A stretch of 32,000 nt of DNA from NCBI GenBank assembly GCA_016699955.1, contig CP064993.1, forward strand, positions 720,001-752,000, in the 5' to 3' direction. Shown one piece after another: positions 3,488 through 32,000 of this stretch. The notes below the pieces were generated by a model. That model was not told where the DNA came from, made no database searches, and saw nothing but the letters and a program-made list of their open reading frames with translations. Every line of letters starts with the position of its first letter. The first letter of the stretch is position 1. Position numbers and translations under genes: made by a program. The DNA is from Candidatus Saccharimonadota bacterium. Lineage in GTDB: Bacteria; Patescibacteriota; Saccharimonadia; Saccharimonadales; UBA4665.

Positions 3488-5266
3488 ATGAAACCAACTC
3501 ACAGCAAACAGACTGACCCCGTTCTGCGCACCAGGTTATGGTATGCGCTAATTGTCGTTGTTTTCGGGGTCTTTGCCGTGAGATTATTTTATACTCAGGT
3601 CATTCGGTATGACCACTATAAGTCGCTTGCTTTGAGCGACCAAACTCGTGAGTACGATGTCCTGCCGGAACGAGGGACCATTTATGCACAGCTGAACGGA
3701 GAAACAATACCGCTTGTTCTAAATCAGAAACTGTTTACGGTGTTTGCTGACCCTAGTATTATAAAAAATCATGCAAAAACCGCTGCGACTATCGCTCCCA
3801 TGCTGGGACTAGATGCTCGTGAGGTCGAAGCAAAGCTTCAAAGTAAAAATACAAGCTATGTTGTGCTAAAACGTCGGGTGGCACCAGATGATAACAAAAA
3901 ATTATTGGCGTTGAAATATCCGGGTATTGCATCGCAGCAGATGAATTACCGAGTGTACCCGCAAGGAACCATGGCTGGCCAGCTGCTTGGTTTTGTCAAT
4001 AATGATGGCGAAGGTAAGTACGGCGTTGAAGAGGCACTTGACGAAACGCTTGCAGGCACACGAGGCCGCCTGAAGGCCATTACCGATGTGAACGGTGTTC
4101 CACTTGCTGCCAGCAGCGAAAACCTGCTTGTTGAGCCCGTGGCAGGGCAGAATGTGACACTGACGCTCGATATGGGCATGCAGGCACAGGTAGAGTCGAT
4201 TGTTAAGGCAGCTCAGGAAAAGTTTCGATCAAAAAATGTCAGTGCAGTTGTGATGGAAACAAACACCGGCGCTGTAAAAGCAATGGCGAACTATCCGACC
4301 TATAATCCAGCAGATTACCAAACAGTTGAAGATGGTGCTTTGTTTCAAAACTATAGCGTTGCCAGCCCCATAGAACCCGGCTCGATAACCAAGGTTTTCA
4401 CAGTTGCGGCAGCGTTAGACAGCGGTGCAATTACGAAAAATACTTCCTATTATGACCCTGGCAAGTGGACGATTGACGGCGCAAAAGTGCTCAATGTCGC
4501 AGAGGGGACTGGCAACGGGACACAGACGATTAAAAGTCTTTTGAATTTGTCCCTTAACACCGGTGCAACATGGACGCTGATGCAGATGGGCGGTGGAAAG
4601 TTGAATGATACCGGACGAGCGAAGCTTTATAAGTATTTTGTCGATCATTTTCGGTTTATGAAGCCAACCGGTATTGAGCAGGGCTACGAGGGAGCGGGCT
4701 TTGTGCCTGACCCAGTGGACAAAGATAACGGTATAAATATAACTTACGCAAATATGTCTTTTGGCCAGGCATATTCAGCTTCCGTACTGCAAATGGCGAG
4801 TGCACTCGGAGCCGTGGTAAATGGTGGCACATACTACCAACCGACCCTGATCTCCTCAACCGTGAGCGGGGCGGGGGATGTGGTGCAAAAAAAGCCGGTC
4901 GTGCTGTCTCGTGATGTTGTGTCTGCACAAACCAGTAAGAGCATGGTTGAACTGCTCGACTATGTTACCGAAGCACACACGGCAGGTTTTCCGTACATGC
5001 GCTTTGACAGTCGTTATAGTGTGGGAGGTAAAACTGGCACGGCACAGATTATTGACGAAAAGACGCATCTTTACCGAGAAGATGTGTTTAACGGAACATT
5101 TTTAGGTTATGTCGGTGGAGATACGCCCCAGTACACCATAGTTGTCTACAACATAGAGCCACACGGTTATTCTGGCTATGCGGGGGCGCAAACTGGGCAA
5201 CCAATTTTTGCTGAGATTGCTCATATGCTTATAAATAACTATGACGTAACTCCGAAAACAAAGTAA
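3488..5266 (+). CDS. ftsI: penicillin-binding protein transpeptidase (FtsI/PBP2 class B)
   Basis: N-terminal TM anchor. Motifs SxxK (GSITK), SxN (SLN) and KTG (GKTGTA) appear in the correct order. Confidence 0.93.
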   Translation: MKPTHSKQTDPVLRTRLWYALIVVVFGVFAVRLFYTQVIRYDHYKSLALSDQTREYDVLPERGTIYAQLNGETIPLVLNQKLFTVFADPSIIKNHAKTAATIAPMLGLDAREVEAKLQSKNTSYVVLKRRVAPDDNKKLLALKYPGIASQQMNYRVYPQGTMAGQLLGFVNNDGEGKYGVEEALDETLAGTRGRLKAITDVNGVPLAASSENLLVEPVAGQNVTLTLDMGMQAQVESIVKAAQEKFRSKNVSAVVMETNTGAVKAMANYPTYNPADYQTVEDGALFQNYSVASPIEPGSITKVFTVAAALDSGAITKNTSYYDPGKWTIDGAKVLNVAEGTGNGTQTIKSLLNLSLNTGATWTLMQMGGGKLNDTGRAKLYKYFVDHFRFMKPTGIEQGYEGAGFVPDPVDKDNGINITYANMSFGQAYSASVLQMASALGAVVNGGTYYQPTLISSTVSGAGDVVQKKPVVLSRDVVSAQTSKSMVELLDYVTEAHTAGFPYMRFDSRYSVGGKTGTAQIIDEKTHLYREDVFNGTFLGYVGGDTPQYTIVVYNIEPHGYSGYAGAQTGQPIFAEIAHMLINNYDVTPKTK

Positions 5267-5328
5267 GGTGACCCGAGGAAGACAATGCGCTATACTACAC
5301 GACAGATTTCAGGAAAAGGAAAAACAAT

Positions 5329-6378
5329 ATGAATGACCAGTTACTTACGGCGACGCTTGAAGGCTCCAGTTTATTGAAAATTGTCTTACTTGGCGTGGGG
5401 GGTTTCTTGCTTTCAATGGCATTGACTCCTCTCTACACGACCGTTGCGTATCGCTGGCATCTCTGGAAAAAACCTCGTACCCAAACAGTGACAGGCACGC
5501 AAGCTACAGTGTTTATGAAGTTGCACGGGGAGAAGCACAAGCGGCATATTCCAACCATGGCAGGCGTTATTTTTATAACAGCTGTAGCTATTTTGACGTT
5601 GAGTGCCAACTGGTCAAGAGCGGAAACGTGGTTGCCGCTGGCAGCATTTGTCGGCGCCGCGGCTGTTGGGCTTTTGGACGACATTATCAATTTGCGGGGA
5701 GATGGAACCGGCAAAGCTGGGTTACCGTCAAAACTGAAGTTTCTTTTAATAACGCTGGTGGCTGCGGTGGCGGGCTGGTATTTTTACTATAAACTTGGGT
5801 TTAACAGCATACAGTTGCCAGGTCTTGAGCATTCATTGGTGCTCGGGTGGTGGATTATACCGCTTTTTACCCTTGTAGTTGTAGCAACGGCAAATGCGGT
5901 GAATATCAGTGATGGGCTTGATGGTTTGGCTGGAGGGTTAACAACTATTGCATTTGCAACCTATACCGTTATTGCCGTGCTTGAAGGCAAGTACGGTGTC
6001 GCCGGTTTTTGCGCGGCCATGGTAGGAGCGCTCATGAGCTACACCTGGTTTAATGTGTTCCCAGCACGATTTTTTATGGGTGACGTTGGATCTTTTGCGC
6101 TCGGTACAGCCCTGGGCGTGATAGCCATGTACACAGATACTGTGCTACTTCTTCCAATTATTGGGTTTGTATTTGTGGCTGAGGCGGGTTCTGTGATTTT
6201 GCAAATTGCGTCTAAAAAGCTACGGAATGGTAAAAAAATATTTCGTATTTCACCCATCCATCACCATTTCGAGGCGATTGGTTGGCCTGAAGCAAAAGTA
6301 ACCATGCGCTTCTGGGTGATTGGCCAGACCGCTGCGTTAGTTGGACTCGCACTTTTCGTAATGGGTCGATACGGCTAG
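5329..6378 (+). CDS. mraY: phospho-N-acetylmuramoyl-pentapeptide transferase MraY
   Basis: Polytopic membrane protein with NAVNISDGLDGLA and the PIHHHFE motif. Confidence 0.95.
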   Translation: MNDQLLTATLEGSSLLKIVLLGVGGFLLSMALTPLYTTVAYRWHLWKKPRTQTVTGTQATVFMKLHGEKHKRHIPTMAGVIFITAVAILTLSANWSRAETWLPLAAFVGAAAVGLLDDIINLRGDGTGKAGLPSKLKFLLITLVAAVAGWYFYYKLGFNSIQLPGLEHSLVLGWWIIPLFTLVVVATANAVNISDGLDGLAGGLTTIAFATYTVIAVLEGKYGVAGFCAAMVGALMSYTWFNVFPARFFMGDVGSFALGTALGVIAMYTDTVLLLPIIGFVFVAEAGSVILQIASKKLRNGKKIFRISPIHHHFEAIGWPEAKVTMRFWVIGQTAALVGLALFVMGRYG

Positions 6379-27455: not shown

Positions 27456-28205
27456 CTAGAACGTTTGCCATAGGTGGTCAAAAAGCTCTTTCTGCATGTT
27501 GGTGACGCCGGGGTTGTCGATAACAATTGCCGAAAGAACGTTTGTGTCGCCGAGCGTTATCAGGGCTGTTTTGTTGCCGTATATGAGGGTGTAGCAATTT
27601 GGAGCCTCTCCGCGAGTTGCTGGAAACTCTTTGCGTTCACTTAATTCATCTTGACTACTGCCGCTGCCAACGCCAATCACTCGAACACTAATCTCGTCTG
27701 CTATCCGGCGTTGAGTAAAATTTGGAAAATTATGGTAAAGATATTGGCGAACGCGTTTCGTAGAGATAACCCGGTATGCTGGGTTTTTCTGCTCGCGGCA
27801 GGTGGCAAGCACATCCCGTAAAATGGCTGCAATCCCCTCGTGGTCTTCGTAAAAGGTAGCGAAAGACACAACTTGAGCAGTGTCGCTACTGGGTTTTGGT
27901 AGATTGGCGATGTATTCCGCGGCGAGTGATTGGGCGACTGCGGCCTGTTCTTGCCGTTCTTTAAGCAGCTCGATGATGACGTCGGGGTTGCTGGCAGTAT
28001 AGCGTCGCTGCTTACCAACCTCTATTGAGCCGACCAAGCCCTGTTCTGCGAGCCGCTTCATGCTTTCGTAGACGCTGCCGCGGTTTATCCCTGTGTCGGC
28101 GGCAATCTTTCGCAGCGAGCTCTGGGGGTTTTCTACCAGCGCCTCATATACTCGTCTGTCACGAGTTTCTAAGCCAATTTCCTCAAATCGAAATGATTCT
28201 GCCAT
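27456..28205 (-). CDS. TrmB-family transcriptional regulator
   Basis: N-terminal winged HTH (IGLETRDRRVYEALVENPQSSLRKIAADTGINRGSVYESMKRLAEQGLV) followed by a TrmB-like C-terminal domain. Confidence 0.8.
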   Translation of the reverse strand: MAESFRFEEIGLETRDRRVYEALVENPQSSLRKIAADTGINRGSVYESMKRLAEQGLVGSIEVGKQRRYTASNPDVIIELLKERQEQAAVAQSLAAEYIANLPKPSSDTAQVVSFATFYEDHEGIAAILRDVLATCREQKNPAYRVISTKRVRQYLYHNFPNFTQRRIADEISVRVIGVGSGSSQDELSERKEFPATRGEAPNCYTLIYGNKTALITLGDTNVLSAIVIDNPGVTNMQKELFDHLWQTF

Positions 28206-28289: not shown

Positions 28290-28856
28290 TTACAGGATGT
28301 TTGAGCGAGTTGTAATGAGGGTTTTTTCGAAGTTGCGGAATATTTCTAGGCCGCGCGCTTGCCATTCAAACTCAAAGTACTCCCACAGGACGGCAGCGTC
28401 GTCAAATGCGCGGTGGCGATGCGCCACGTCTATCCCCTGCCGTTCAATGATGCGGTCTAGTGCGTGACTGTGCTGCGCTGGATATAACAGTCGGTCAAGT
28501 CGAACGGTACACCCTCGGTCCATACGAAACATACGCCCGAGGCGGCGATATTCTTCTCGGATAAACCCGTAATCAAAGTTTACGTGGTGAGCGACAAATA
28601 TTGCCTGATCCAAAAATTGCTCCAGTTCTGTGGCAACGTCTTTAAATGTCGGCTGCCCCGATACCATCGCATTGTTAATACCAGTGAGCCGTGTGATGAA
28701 CGGCGGAACGGCGCACTCTGGATCAATCAGTTGGTTGAACACGCCACTGACTGCGCCATTTTCGATGCGGATTGCTCCTATTTCGGTAATACGTGACCAG
28801 TGCGGACTTCCGCCCGTTGTCTCAATGTCTAAAAATACGATTGGTCGGTGTTGCAT
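28290..28856 (-). CDS. DEDDh 3'-5' exonuclease (DnaQ/epsilon-like)
   Basis: ExoI FLDIETTG, ExoII AHHVNFDYGFI, ExoIII HRAFDDAAV. Its ATG lies 2 nt after the polymerase stop codon. Confidence 0.88.
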   Translation of the reverse strand: MQHRPIVFLDIETTGGSPHWSRITEIGAIRIENGAVSGVFNQLIDPECAVPPFITRLTGINNAMVSGQPTFKDVATELEQFLDQAIFVAHHVNFDYGFIREEYRRLGRMFRMDRGCTVRLDRLLYPAQHSHALDRIIERQGIDVAHRHRAFDDAAVLWEYFEFEWQARGLEIFRNFEKTLITTRSNIL

Positions 28857-28858
28857 GG

Positions 28859-30127
28859 TTATTGTCTCTTTAAGAGTAGGTCAAAGTATTCTGTACCGCC
28901 GAAGGGTATCTTCTGGCGGACCGTGCGGGTGCCGGTGAGTGTGTCTGCCGAGTAGACGGTAAACGCGCCGTAGTTGTCATTGATTTCGTCGACGGCACTG
29001 GTGAGGTAGTCTGCCTTGGCCAGGTCTTCGAAAAGGCCGAGTTGACTGCGCGTGGAAGGCTGCAGGTGGTATAAGTAAAGCCCCATAGTGCGCACCACCA
29101 TGCCTTTTGGTCGTTGATCAAATAGACTAGCAACGCGCTCCCAAATAGTGCTGTTAGTGTAGCACGCTGTTTTGTACAGTTTTTTTACAATGCACTCTCC
29201 TCCAGCCTGAAAGCTGAGCCACACGCAAACGCCACGTGCTTCGGCTTGCCGGTAACGTAGTTTTATGCCGGTTGTTTCAGCGAGAAAGTGCAAGCAAGAG
29301 CGCAAATATGCGTCTTCTGCTGTTGGGCTTGCGACAACCCACTGTCGCCCTACCATACCGAGCTGAGTTTGAAAATCGTCTACCTCATAGCCACGTAGCC
29401 TGTTGTACCAATGTATACCGTTGATACTGCGAAAAACAACTCGTCGCAACAGGCGTTCTGGTGCCGCCAGGAACTCAAGCGGTGTTGTGATACCGTGCGC
29501 TCGTAGTCGTGCGCCGTAACCATCGGCAATGCCACTTAGGTCTTGCAGATCTAGCCCTCGGTATACCGCTAGGAGATTTTGGTGATCAATGACGTCTAGA
29601 CCGTCCGGTTTGTGGAGGCCTGCGGCAGTTTTGGCCAGAAATCGATTTGGGGCAATGCCAACGTTTATCTTGGTGTAGTCACCTATTTCCCGTTTGACTC
29701 GTTGCTTGATTTCGTAGCCAATTTCAACGATTTTTTCGGTTTTGCTCTCGAGAAGCGTATGATGAAAATCTAAAATGCCTTCATCGATACTGCGCATTTT
29801 GATGTGCGGGGTGTAGTCTTGCATGATGCGGCACAGGTTTTTGTAGACGTGGTTATACTTGGGTGGGTCTGTTTCGAGCATAATGAAGTCTGGACAGATT
29901 GCCATAGCTTCGCTGCGCCGCACGCCTACCTTTATGCCGAGAGCTTTCGCTTCATAGCTTGCGGCTATGACACAGCACTCTGGGCTTAAACGGTTCGTGA
30001 CTCCCATGGGGCGGCCGCGCAGACTCGGGTGCGCTTGTTGTTCGGCGGTGGCGAACGCACTGTTGAGGTCAACCCACATAATACTAGGGGCTTCAGTGTT
30101 TAGCCGAAAATTTTTCTGATATTTCAT
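28859..30127 (-). CDS. Y-family (DinB/UmuC-like) translesion DNA polymerase
   Basis: WVDLNSAFATAEQ (first catalytic Asp), IAASYEAKALGIKVG, and SIDEGILDF (catalytic D/E). The start at 30127 forms an ATGA overlap with the upstream ORF's stop. Confidence 0.88.
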   Translation of the reverse strand: MKYQKNFRLNTEAPSIMWVDLNSAFATAEQQAHPSLRGRPMGVTNRLSPECCVIAASYEAKALGIKVGVRRSEAMAICPDFIMLETDPPKYNHVYKNLCRIMQDYTPHIKMRSIDEGILDFHHTLLESKTEKIVEIGYEIKQRVKREIGDYTKINVGIAPNRFLAKTAAGLHKPDGLDVIDHQNLLAVYRGLDLQDLSGIADGYGARLRAHGITTPLEFLAAPERLLRRVVFRSINGIHWYNRLRGYEVDDFQTQLGMVGRQWVVASPTAEDAYLRSCLHFLAETTGIKLRYRQAEARGVCVWLSFQAGGECIVKKLYKTACYTNSTIWERVASLFDQRPKGMVVRTMGLYLYHLQPSTRSQLGLFEDLAKADYLTSAVDEINDNYGAFTVYSADTLTGTRTVRQKIPFGGTEYFDLLLKRQ

Positions 30128-30399
30128 GTGCTGCCTCCTGGAATGATGGCGGTGAGTGTCCAAGTCAGTGCCTCGGCGTCAAACTCGAGCCGGTAATCAT
30201 CGCAGCCGTCGGAAACATCGAACACATGAATCATGCGCTTCCCCTTTGCGGTTGGATGGCGCAAGCCGAGCTGCGTAAAGGTAACGTCACGGTTCTTGTA
30301 GCGCATTTTGTAAGGCTGCGCGATTGAACTTGGTTCGGTGTGGACGTGAAATAAGATGACAACGCTAACACGCTCGTCGCAAATAATAGTGGGGTTCAT
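30124..30399 (-). CDS. small unknown protein P91, paralog of P83, translationally coupled to the polymerase
   Basis: Shares the pattern P..(I/M).Y..R.VTF...GLR.....G...I..FD(M/V)S......YR(I/L)......W.L with ORF 30607-30858. Its stop overlaps the polymerase start. Confidence 0.55.
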   Translation of the reverse strand: MNPTIICDERVSVVILFHVHTEPSSIAQPYKMRYKNRDVTFTQLGLRHPTAKGKRMIHVFDVSDGCDDYRLEFDAEALTWTLTAIIPGGST

Positions 30400-30420
30400 G
30401 AGGTGTGTTGCCTAGTGGGT

Positions 30421-30606
30421 TTATGAGGTCCAGCGTAGGCTTTCTCCCCAGTGTTTGATTGGCCGTTTGGCGCGGAATACATCGCCAATAATACGACGGT
30501 GAGGCGGGCTGAGATCAAATGGCGTTCGCAGTGTGACGGCTTGTGCTCCCGGGAAATAACGCTGTATCTGCCCGATATCCTCAGTGAGGTACTGCCTATT
30601 TTTCAT
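30421..30606 (-). CDS. small basic unknown protein P61
   Basis: Its ATG immediately follows the TAA of the upstream ORF (TAAATG at 30604-30609). No motif; support is positional only. Confidence 0.4.
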   Translation of the reverse strand: MKNRQYLTEDIGQIQRYFPGAQAVTLRTPFDLSPPHRRIIGDVFRAKRPIKHWGESLRWTS

Positions 30607-30858
30607 TTAAAAAGCTCCTTTCCGGCCGAGCAACATCCATCTGTCACCGCTTCGACTGATTCGGTAGGTATGGCCGTCCTCAGTGCTCATGTCGAATAGC
30701 TGGATTGCTTCTTGCCCGCGTTGGACAAGGTAGCGTAGGCCGTTCATAAACGTCACAGCCCTGCCACCGTATTCAATCTCGCGCGGGAATGTTTTCATTG
30801 TCTGGCCGGCAAAATAGAGGGCATTTATAGTAACTTCTTGGTTGATAACTTGGGTCAT
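30607..30858 (-). CDS. small unknown protein P83, paralog of P91, first gene of the cassette
   Basis: ATG 30858 is preceded by GGAGGA (10-nt spacing). It shows sequence similarity to P91. The ORF-track start at 31104 adds an implausible non-ATG extension. Confidence 0.6.
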   Translation of the reverse strand: MTQVINQEVTINALYFAGQTMKTFPREIEYGGRAVTFMNGLRYLVQRGQEAIQLFDMSTEDGHTYRISRSGDRWMLLGRKGAF

Positions 30859-30914
30859 GGCTGACTTTCCTCCATTACATTTCATTAATTTTTGTCGATA
30901 AAGCTTTAGAACGA

Positions 30915-30946
30915 CAAAAAGCCGAAGTCGTAATAACTCTTTCGGC
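30915..30946 (-). terminator. terminator-like hairpin (GCCGAA-14 nt-TTCGGC-TTTTT) in the spacer upstream of the cassette
   Basis: Read on the minus strand. The 6-bp stem and long loop make it weak. It could end the upstream two-component operon or attenuate the cassette. Confidence 0.35.
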
Positions 30947-31227
30947 AACGGGTTTTGTTGGTAGGTGCCTGTCACGCTCGCGACCGTTTCACGCGGGGTG
31001 GGTATAAGGAACCTGTTTTGAGTAATGAAGGCGCACAGTGACCGAAGTGTGATTGCCTGAAATATAGTCTGCGAGGTAAAAACCTTAAACAGGTCAGTCC
31101 TCACATGGCTGGATTACTTAATATACGCTTGTGTTTACGACTTGCATAGTGTCGTTTTAACCACAAGACAGCATAGGCAGGCGGTTTCGCCCACGCAAGG
31201 TCGCCAATTGCTCTTCAAATTCTGATC

Positions 31228-31647
31228 TTAGGTCGTTGCCGGTTCGAGTTTACTCAGAAACTCTACCAGTTGATGGGGAGTTATTTCTGCTTTGACAAGG
31301 TAGCCGTCGGCCTGGTGCTCGATATCGGCACGGACGTCATCGCGCTGTTCGAGGTTCGTCGTAATGATTATTTTTGCATGCATCTTGGGCGTCTGACGAG
31401 GGTCACGCAAGGTGCGCAGAACCTCGATGCCGGTAATACTGGGCACCATAAGGTCAAGCAAGATAATATCGTATGCGTCTGTTTGGGCGGCCGCTAAGCC
31501 GTTTTGGCCATCGAGCTGAACATCGACTTCGTAACCGGCTTTGGTCAGAGCTCGGGCGTAGAGCTCACTAATAAAATGTTCATCCTCAACGCAGAGGACT
31601 TTTCGAAGCGTTGGGGTTGGAGTGGGAATGGGTGTGTCTGGTTGCAT
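31228..31647 (-). CDS. stand-alone receiver (CheY-like) response regulator
   Basis: VLCVEDE...DIILLDLMVP...TT...GYLVK receiver motifs, with no output domain. Confidence 0.9.
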   Translation of the reverse strand: MQPDTPIPTPTPTLRKVLCVEDEHFISELYARALTKAGYEVDVQLDGQNGLAAAQTDAYDIILLDLMVPSITGIEVLRTLRDPRQTPKMHAKIIITTNLEQRDDVRADIEHQADGYLVKAEITPHQLVEFLSKLEPATT

Positions 31648-31655
31648 AGTTTCCT

Positions 31656-32000
31656 TTATTCGCGGTAGAGCGAGTGATTTTTTATCCAGCCGTGGGCTCC
31701 GCGGGTGATGCCATTAGTATTGCCTGTTTTGCCCTGTTCTGCAAGTTTGGTGTATGGCAAGACGGTGAATGTAAATGTGCTTCCCTCGTCAACTTTGCTA
31801 TTGACCGATATTTGCCCGCCGTGTGCCTGCACAATAGCTCGACTCAGGTAGAGGCCTAGACCTGTGCCACCTATCTGAGCGCGGTTACGGTGGTTGCGGT
31901 AAAATTTATCGAAAATATGTGGCAAGATTGAAGAATCTATACCAAGGCCAAAATCTTTTACGCTGGTCTCGACAAGACCATTTGCGTTGAGGCTGGCGGA
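31656..32000 (-). CDS. sensor histidine kinase, C-terminal HATPase_c part (5' end outside window)
   Basis: The frame is open to the window edge. VKDFGLGIDSSILPHIFDKFYR and GGTGLGLYLSRAIV are G1/G2-box motifs. Confidence 0.85.
   Translation of the reverse strand, partial: SASLNANGLVETSVKDFGLGIDSSILPHIFDKFYRNHRNRAQIGGTGLGLYLSRAIVQAHGGQISVNSKVDEGSTFTFTVLPYTKLAEQGKTGNTNGITRGAHGWIKNHSLYRE

Follow-up and report, generated by a model that had tools for sequence, protein, structure and literature searches.

We analysed a 32,000-nucleotide (nt) stretch of contig CP064993.1 from a Candidatus Saccharimonadota bacterium (assembly GCA_016699955.1, positions 720,001 to 752,000), hereafter the window. The subject is a minus-strand cassette of five open reading frames (ORFs), which encode three small proteins (P83, P61 and P91), a Y-family DNA polymerase and an exonuclease, in the following order of transcription:

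30607..30858, minus strand: P83, a small beta protein resembling ImuB-C/DUF6504, paralog of P91
30421..30606, minus strand: P61, a conserved mini-protein directly after P83
30124..30399, minus strand: P91, a standalone ImuB-C-like accessory protein whose gene overlaps the polymerase start
28859..30127, minus strand: Y-family DNA polymerase, DinB/PolY-core-like, with IMS and IMS_C domains
28290..28856, minus strand: DEDDh (DnaQ-like) 3'-5' exonuclease with an RNase_T domain

A first-pass annotation, made from the letters alone, had listed these five ORFs and regarded them as an undescribed module in which a translesion polymerase is hard-wired to an exonuclease and three unknown subunits. All five ORFs are present at these coordinates, and the junctions were read as it had described them: a GGAGGA ribosome-binding site lies 9 nt upstream of the P83 ATG (30858), P83 and P61 meet at TAAATG, 21 nt separate P61 from P91, the genes for P91 and the polymerase share the ATGA at 30127-30124, and the polymerase TAA is followed after 2 nt by the exonuclease ATG. 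The description as a co-oriented, translationally coupled translesion-polymerase cassette holds. Three features had gone unremarked, namely the paralogy of P83 and P91, the confinement of the five-gene order to the closest relatives, and a structured leader RNA in the 369 nt upstream of P83.

The coding status of the five genes was assessed by comparing nonsynonymous (pN) and synonymous (pS) divergence from the two closest relatives, L005 and L006. Over all five genes, pN was 0.09-0.32 and pS 0.57-0.84; the corresponding values were 0.13-0.17 and 0.60-0.73 for P83, and 0.19-0.25 and 0.57-0.82 for P61. Since pN is far below pS in every ORF, all five, P61 included, are real genes under purifying selection. 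The first-pass annotation had raised the possibility that the small ORFs are not under such selection; this was checked, and purifying selection was found. The exact P83 sequence of 83 amino acids (aa) is absent from the protein collection searched, and public annotation may therefore miss or mis-start P83. A mechanical 165-aa ORF with a GTG start (window 30607-31104, minus strand) extends P83 upstream through the leader RNA. The P91 product is identical to NCBI protein IPL85_03815.

To define the conserved unit, one genome per species was scanned for P91 relatives. They were found in 236 species-level genomes, and 80 loci were taken for neighbourhood counts, with a gap threshold of 120 nt for the polymerase. 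A polymerase starts at most 120 nt after P91 in 71 of the 80 loci and lies within 700 nt in 6 more; the contig ends before any polymerase in 1, and the polymerase is more than 2.5 kb away in 2. In L088-L090, where identity to P91 is just 30-35%, the genes of the relatives still run into the start of a Y-family polymerase gene. What is conserved, then, is the combination of P91 with the polymerase. In one of these distant relatives from the Candidate Phyla Radiation (CPR), a gene for an SOS-response-associated peptidase (SRAP) lies in divergent orientation beside the ImuB-C-like-polymerase pair (L088, 3265-3942, minus strand), a neighbour that fits a DNA-damage context.

The remaining genes of the cassette are found at fewer loci: the exonuclease follows the polymerase in 8/80, a P83-type paralog precedes P91 in 6/80, and P61 is present in 2/80 (L005 and L006). 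The gene-neighbourhood check suggested in the first-pass annotation, run on these 80 loci, thus restricts the five-gene order to the window and its two closest relatives, and the picture of a hard-wired five-gene unit gives way to that of a local, lineage-specific elaboration of a known module. These counts also bear on the proposal that the five proteins form one obligate, new five-subunit machine for damage tolerance or mutagenesis, with a dedicated proofreading exonuclease. Such a machine would account for the tight coupling of all five genes and the purifying selection on them, for the order kept in L005 and L006, and for the exonuclease that follows the polymerase, at gaps of 6-39 nt, in 7 loci across divergent Saccharibacteria. 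We nevertheless consider it highly improbable, as the full order goes no further than the closest relatives, 72 of the 80 loci are without the exonuclease, the P83-P61 pair also occurs with UmuD-UmuC or without a polymerase, and the small subunits fall into a described family (PMC6511836).

P83 and P91 are paralogs (BLASTP E 1e-7), and an end-to-end alignment of their families contains 9 invariant columns. For P91 there are 742 homolog clusters, which all bear the name 'hypothetical' and come almost entirely from Saccharibacteria; P83 has 106, all from Saccharibacteria where named. A superfamily profile combining the P91 and P83 families, run against 1.84 billion representatives, recovered 331 proteins of ~85 aa. 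Searches of Pfam, NCBIfam and PHROGs assigned P83, P61 and P91 to no family, the sole match being a chance-level one of P83 to AlphaA (E 0.12); no consistent family emerged when 86 family representatives were scanned against NCBIfam, and the superfamily profile matched nothing among PDB sequences. Two candidate identities were rejected. For UmuD, no Peptidase_S24 match was obtained at E thresholds of 1 to 10, and no UmuD' was among the Foldseek matches of P91. For YolD (PF08863), no match was obtained with the three ORFs, with 47 P91 homologs (E ≤ 10) or with the 86 representatives (E ≤ 1). The Pfam scans and Foldseek thus bear out the first-pass view that the small ORFs are neither UmuD nor YolD.

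A link to ImuB emerged through DUF6504 (PF20114), which is matched by 14 of the 86 superfamily representatives, always in the same N-terminal half; P0375, one of the 86, scores 25.4 bits and so passes the gathering cutoff of 24.2. DUF6504 in turn matches residues 430-500 of the ImuB encoded beside DnaE2 on Sinorhizobium meliloti pSymA (E 0.0065), and 'DUF6504 family protein' is the label given by the Prokaryotic Genome Annotation Pipeline (PGAP) to the ImuB gene of a Sphingobium imuA-imuB-dnaE2 operon. Judged by these sequence matches, DUF6504 is the C-terminal domain of ImuB. A full-text literature search for 'DUF6504' returned no paper.

A second link is to standalone proteins of Geobacter and Pelobacter. 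Using one family representative, tblastn led to an 84-aa gene on a Geobacter anodireducens plasmid, situated between lexA and a frameshifted Y-family polymerase gene; it is identified as ImuB-C from PMC6511836 in the case of G. sulfurreducens and, in that of the plasmid copy, from its position. Four profiles were used in hhalign comparisons: P91 only (A1), P91 and P83 (A2), the superfamily including both (A3), and its CPR subgroup (A4). Against the small Geobacter and Pelobacter proteins, A4 reached 97.2% probability (E 4e-11) and A3 95% (E 3.8e-8); A2 against the Geobacter protein alone reached 79% (E 1.6e-5). With nine ImuB C-termini, A3 and A4 aligned only weakly, across the N-terminal strand motif, at E 0.02 and 0.004, respectively. 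When family members were searched against plasmids by tblastn, the standalone Geobacter and Pelobacter proteins were reached and the ImuB C-termini were not.

The AlphaFold2 model of P91 is all-beta with 7 strands (mean predicted local distance difference test, pLDDT, 85.8), and Foldseek found no match to it at E<0.001 in PDB or BFVD. ImuB-C has been described as beta-rich without a known structural relative (PMC6511836) and, in AlphaFold models, as a beta-barrel whose fold is novel and which makes contact with DnaE2 and ImuA (PMC12926913); it is also reported not to be SH3-like (PMC12926913). The all-beta model without a PDB relative is consistent with this published 'novel fold'.

We conclude that P91 and P83 are putative standalone ImuB-C-like proteins, divergent members of the ImuB-C/DUF6504 superfamily, rather than two of three unknown subunits. 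The module is not undescribed either. Timinskas and Venclovas (2019) reported standalone ImuB-C coupled to an active Y-family polymerase (PMC6511836), and a 2026 survey lists 'PolYs associated with ImuB-C' (PMC12926913). An operon of G. sulfurreducens, lexA-imuB-C-polY, is described as damage-induced and co-transcribed (Jara et al. 2003, as cited in PMC6511836). Some members of the superfamily deviate from this plan. Pelobacter propionicus pPRO1 carries an unannotated standalone ImuB-C-like ORF (L092, ~5001-5270), 49% identical to the Geobacter protein, which adjoins a gene for integration host factor (IHF), has no polymerase downstream and may be a remnant. Odd architectures were also recorded (P0352, P0343, P0336/P0338); one 4361-aa protein has four profile-matching stretches, another protein carries a fused methyltransferase domain, and some 140-aa proteins bear a long insertion inside the domain.

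The first-pass assignment of the polymerase to the Y family was confirmed by Pfam (IMS 4e-33, IMS_C 3.4e-4), and the catalytic acidic residues it had named can be read in the translation (VDLNSAF and SIDEG); the enzyme is apparently active. All NCBIfam models for Pol IV and UmuC score below their cutoffs, the best at 163 bits, and the polymerase is therefore not an equivalog of E. coli DinB or UmuC. Its C-terminus is strongly conserved across 81 orthologs, where QLxLF is followed by LTxAvDEINDfYGxFT and then by vKQKIPFGGTEYFxLLLKR. The corresponding tail in the window, QKIPFGGTEYFDLLLKR, comprises QLGLF, a RecA N-terminal-like (RecA-NT-like) motif LTSAVDEINDNYGAFTV and the conserved end QKIPFGGTEYFDLLLKRQ. 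We take QLxLF to be a beta-clamp motif, by established consensus. The second motif resembles the N-terminal oligomerisation motif of RecA (hhalign P=0.0013 against E. coli RecA), and a RecA-NT-like motif in the tail has been reported for polymerases partnered with ImuB-C. Pfam DUF4113 gave no match to the window polymerase at E ≤ 1. The terminal peptide is an obvious candidate for the docking site of P91.

Taken together, we favour, with a probability of roughly 0.75, the reading that the ImuB-C-like P91 and an active Y-family polymerase constitute a two-gene translesion module that carries lineage-specific additions. By analogy with UmuD'2C, YqjX/YolD-YqjW and ImuB (PMC6511836, PMC12926913), P91 would be a small accessory subunit. 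It would form a physical complex with the polymerase by docking on its tail and would act jointly with RecA and the clamp to license or target the bypass of lesions. Three additions would be built onto this core. The first is P83, a further ImuB-C paralog, together with P61, its obligate partner; this pair would be a separate module at the same slot whatever the polymerase cassette. The second is the DnaQ-like exonuclease coupled behind the polymerase, which may trim misincorporations in trans. The third, taking the place of a LexA box, is the pseudoknotted leader RNA and its terminator-like hairpin; on some signal, this RNA most likely gates either read-through by transcription or translation for the operon as a whole.

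Several observations weigh against this reading. In the Pfam scan, neither P91 nor P83 of the window matched DUF6504 at E ≤ 10. The profile of P91 only (A1) reached the Geobacter and Pelobacter proteins at just 56% probability (E 1e-4). Similarity to the nine alphaproteobacterial ImuB C-termini is weak (hhalign E 0.003-0.02), and a full-length colinear alignment with the ImuB C-terminus was obtained only with the relaxed setting -mact 0.05 (E 0.0034, for A4 plus Geobacter plus Pelobacter). As to the additions, the exonuclease is missing from 90% of the loci, a homolog 40% identical to it lies away from any polymerase in L085, and it may be just a neighbour. Of the leaders situated 25-50 nt from the P91 start, most are without a convincing terminator; the regulatory mechanism is not uniform, and the RNA could be bound by a protein instead of being a riboswitch.

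P83 and P61 are found together. In all five other P83-bearing loci examined (L005, L006, L085, L086 and L087), a P61 homolog directly follows P83, including one in L086 that was overlooked by the gene caller. The homologs share the motif YLTEDLxxIQ+YFPGAxxVxLxTPFDL...W..W, with two C-terminal tryptophans. In L085-L087 the pair occurs without the P91-polymerase unit, contrary to the first-pass idea of a hard-wired unit, at a slot flanked upstream by a histidine kinase and a response regulator, and downstream by a TylF methyltransferase and a SPOUT methylase. The occupants of this slot differ. P83-P63 stands alone, without a polymerase, in L085 (5001-5444); L086 (5001-7190) has P83, a UmuD-like S24 protein and then a UmuC-like polymerase with DUF4113; L087 (5001-7210) has P83-P64 and then a UmuC-like polymerase; and the window has P83-P61-P91-DinB-like-exonuclease-TrmB. 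P83-P61 is kept whichever polymerase cassette is present; the pair is a separate two-gene module, and exchange of Y-family polymerase cassettes appears to take place at a single chromosomal site. In the window, the response regulator upstream of the cassette is receiver-only (31228-31647, minus strand; 139 aa, no output domain) and is preceded by the histidine kinase (31656-31925, minus strand); both genes lie upstream of the cassette in many, not all, loci (L003, L024, L026, L030, L052, L053 and others).

One explanation for the constancy of the pair is that P83-P61 is a regulatory or decoy module, comparable to a split ImuB C-terminal region, which would bind RecA and/or the polymerase tail and so gate the neighbouring Y-family polymerase. 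The two genes are always adjacent and coupled; they share a site with the P91-DinB-like cassette, with UmuD-UmuC or with neither, and the leader RNA precedes P83 also in the UmuDC loci L086 and L087. ImuB itself has the domain order RecA-NT motif, then ImuB-C (PMC6511836), and the register in which P61 and the RecA N-terminus align is the expected one (hhalign P=0.012, compared with P=0.0013 for the polymerase tails). That alignment, however, is statistically weak, and no leader was detected by the covariance-model search in the polymerase-less L085. A RecA-N-terminal-like motif in P61 is thus speculative, and we regard the decoy role as rather unlikely.

The exonuclease assignment of the first-pass annotation is upheld by RNase_T (2.1e-34, Pfam), and the three Exo motifs it had reported are readable as DIETTG, HHVNFDYGF and HRAFDDA (Exo I-III, including the histidine). 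The best NCBIfam matches are to the exonuclease domains of DEDD-exonuclease, DinG and PolC proteins; no equivalog cutoff is reached, and only TIGR00573, a general domain model of the epsilon-subunit family, is exceeded. We know of no established arrangement in which a DEDDh exonuclease is partnered with a translesion polymerase. The chances are about even that this protein is a housekeeping DnaQ-like enzyme that in some lineages came to lie next to the polymerase by chance. It is present in only 8/80 loci, the homolog in polymerase-less L085 lies 3.6 kb away in another context, and standalone DnaQ homologs are common, bacteria averaging more than three per proteome (PMC12926913). Less easily explained by a chance neighbour is the short spacing, with 2 nt between polymerase and exonuclease in the window, ~6 nt in L005 and L006 (tblastn) and ~35 nt at five divergent loci, nor was a terminator predicted between the two genes in the window scan. 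A dedicated proofreading role is possible but unsupported. Just downstream lies a syntenic gene for a TrmB-family helix-turn-helix regulator (27456..28205, minus strand; TrmB 4.9e-13), which has its own promoter-like site (CTGACA-16-TATGCT, 28248-28221); an ortholog, 80-82% identical, follows the exonuclease in L005 and L006 only.

Upstream of P83, the following elements were identified:

30940..31022, minus strand: leader RNA motif (covariance model, 52.3 bits, E 1.4e-9)
31014-31006 with 30972-30963, minus strand: helix P1 of the leader, AGGT.TCCTT pairing with ACAGG.CACCT
30995-30979, minus strand: hairpin P2 of the leader, CGCG/CGCG
30989-30984 with 30952-30947, minus strand: pseudoknot of the leader, loop AAACGG pairing with CCCGTT
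30908..30946, minus strand: terminator-like hairpin, GCCGAAAG...CTTCGGC followed by TTTTTGTCGTTCT, directly 3' of the pseudoknot strand
31030..31058, minus strand: conserved sequence block AGGCAATCACACTTCGGTCACTGTGCGCC, upstream of the leader RNA
31171..31196, minus strand: terminator-like hairpin after the response-regulator gene, a 9-pair stem followed by TGTCTTGTGG

The leader RNA spans ~85 nt and comprises two helices and a pseudoknot. In the regions upstream of P91, the conserved element is built from P1, an enclosing helix, and P2, a variable hairpin whose loop is GAACGG, and the A-rich stretch after the hairpin ends in CCGTT, which is able to pair with this loop. A single-sequence fold of the window leader gives P1 and P2 again. 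A covariance model of P1 and P2, with the pseudoknot left out, was run over both strands of 941 kb and returned 55 matches, 49 of them at E<0.01. Every one of the 55 lies on the coding strand, immediately upstream of the operon's first ImuB-C-like ORF, which is P91, or P83 where P83 is present, including the UmuDC-type loci L086 and L087. The 32-kb window holds no second copy.

The structure is supported by covariation. On the 55-sequence alignment the score was 0.382, compared with 0.142 ± 0.010 for shuffled alignments, none of 500 reaching the observed value, and at most 0.106 for slid controls; a 24-sequence alignment (A5) likewise supports the structure. The pseudoknot is supported by compensatory exchanges although it was left out of the model: columns 48-162 pair as GC 20, GU 7, AU 5, UA 5 and CG 1, and columns 50-160 as AU 45 and GC 5. 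Frequent G-U pairs in the helices argue for structure at the RNA level. When the leaders of the window and of 5 canonical loci were compared with the 4227 families of Rfam, no family matched, and a literature search for a Saccharibacteria RNA motif yielded nothing relevant. A metagenome scan for a regulon with the 15-mer CGGTCMCTGTGCGCC gave chance matches only, with 0 covariance-model matches in 80 loci.

The hairpin at 31171..31196 marks the end of the preceding histidine-kinase/response-regulator operon, which implies that transcription of the cassette has its own start further downstream. In at least 36 of the 55 loci, a block with the consensus GGCAATCAyACTnCGGTCmCTGTGCGCC lies ~20-40 nt upstream of the leader. 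It is conserved in sequence and not by covariation, and it is probably either a promoter, with a -10-like element (CAyACT) and the transcript start, or an operator. On the 3' side, the hairpin of the window leader appears in the fold and in an ad-hoc scan, with a folding energy (dG) of -4.8, offset 0 and the tail CTTTTTGTC; a consensus terminator scan with a loop limit of 8 nt misses it, its loop being longer. Similar hairpins with U tracts at offset 0 occur in ~11 other leaders. In the ad-hoc scan, 15 of the 55 leaders have convincing terminators, 12 of them directly after the pseudoknot strand. Terminator-like hairpins thus accompany about a quarter of the leaders, that of the window included, and the others are placed 25-50 nt from the start codon. 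The terminator-like hairpin is a candidate expression platform.

Short ORFs were also seen between leader and P91. In L026 and L038 (~5858-5995) and in L060 (~3553-3693), the leader is followed by a 45-46-aa ORF that corresponds to the N-terminal ImuB-C-like half only (…EIQITAVEFSKNSPKLRFESYPRRIVYGGREYVLAG), ahead of a full P91. In L062 (~4402-4569), L043, L048 and L061, a 44-55-aa ORF with the motif …E+RIRVFL..RK… occupies this position.

The first-pass annotation had noted that no lexA lies in the window, and indeed no LexA homolog is found nearby. In ~970 kb, searches for RecA and LexA homologs found none, and a Geobacter LexA query matched just its own locus, L091. The most economical view is that the leader is a cis-regulatory RNA that gates the translesion operon where other bacteria use LexA. 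A bolder proposal goes further on two counts. The leader would be a new riboswitch class, or an RNA sensing damage or a nucleotide signal, that replaces LexA for Saccharibacteria translesion operons and controls both ImuB-C-DinB-like and UmuD-UmuC cassettes, and P83-P61 would act as an adaptor, a split 'RecA-NT motif + ImuB-C', linking RecA with the polymerase that happens to be expressed. We hold this combined proposal to be unlikely; if true, SOS-type control by an RNA switch before mutagenic polymerases would be unusual.

Alternatively, the upstream element could be a protein-binding leader, for example one used in autoregulation by an ImuB-C-like protein, or mainly a DNA operator or promoter, and not a ligand-sensing RNA. 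Sequence conservation of the 5' block without covariation is what a promoter or operator would be expected to show, the next ORF is always ImuB-C-like, sometimes just a 45-aa N-terminal half, and the expression platform varies among loci. The helices, by contrast, covary with strand-specific G-U pairs (UG 22 at one P1 pair, GU 7 at one pseudoknot pair), and an H-type pseudoknot with a terminator is an architecture typical of riboswitches. We regard this alternative as less likely than not.

The cassette is of interest because ImuB-C is the least understood module of bacterial mutasomes. A free-standing, highly conserved ImuB-C-like protein of ~90 aa that is encoded beside an apparently active polymerase and occurs in at least 236 species-level genomes, those of episymbionts with tiny genomes, could offer a simple system for the function of ImuB-C. 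The three additions lead to testable hypotheses on the assembly, proofreading and regulation of translesion synthesis in CPR bacteria. Compared with the systems described so far, the cassette represents a variation on the known ImuB-C-PolY module, in a phylum new for it; what looks new is the leader RNA, the most novel element, together with the P83-P61 pair and the occasional coupling of an exonuclease.

The closest counterpart is the GeoPolY-like lexA-imuB-C-polY arrangement of Geobacter (PMC6511836), which has the same gene order and profile-level homology at 95-97% probability. The window cassette differs in that it is without lexA and has the structured leader RNA in that place, and its extra genes are those for P61, for the paralog P83 and, at a minority of the loci, for a DEDDh exonuclease. 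Published taxa with ImuB-C-PolY are delta-proteobacteria, Deferribacteres, Planctomycetes and Clostridia (PMC6511836, PMC12926913), and Saccharibacteria/CPR lie beyond those listed. The ImuA-ImuB-DnaE2 mutasome shares the ImuB-C/DUF6504 superfamily and the combination of a Y-family scaffold, a RecA-like contact and a small beta domain. In the window, however, ImuB-C is a separate gene, neither ImuA nor DnaE2 is encoded nearby, the catalytic residues of the Y-family protein are retained, and similarity to ImuB C-termini is weak.

UmuD'2C (Pol V) and YolD/YqjX-YqjW likewise have a small accessory gene upstream of, and coupled to, a polymerase with a RecA-NT-like tail motif. P83 and P91 are homologous to neither UmuD nor YolD; a true UmuD-UmuC cassette fills the same chromosomal slot in the relative L086, where the S24 protein is a different gene. 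With DnaQ/epsilon-type DEDDh exonucleases, the window enzyme shares the RNase_T fold and the three Exo motifs including the histidine, and it differs in being a standalone protein of 188 aa encoded behind a Y-family polymerase. The leader RNA resembles the preQ1-I and SAM-II H-type pseudoknot riboswitches in architecture only: in each, a hairpin loop in a 5' leader pairs with a strand after an A-rich linker, and some copies of the window-type leader likewise have an intrinsic-terminator-like hairpin after it. Unlike these riboswitches, it has an enclosing P1 helix, precedes translesion genes and matches no Rfam family.

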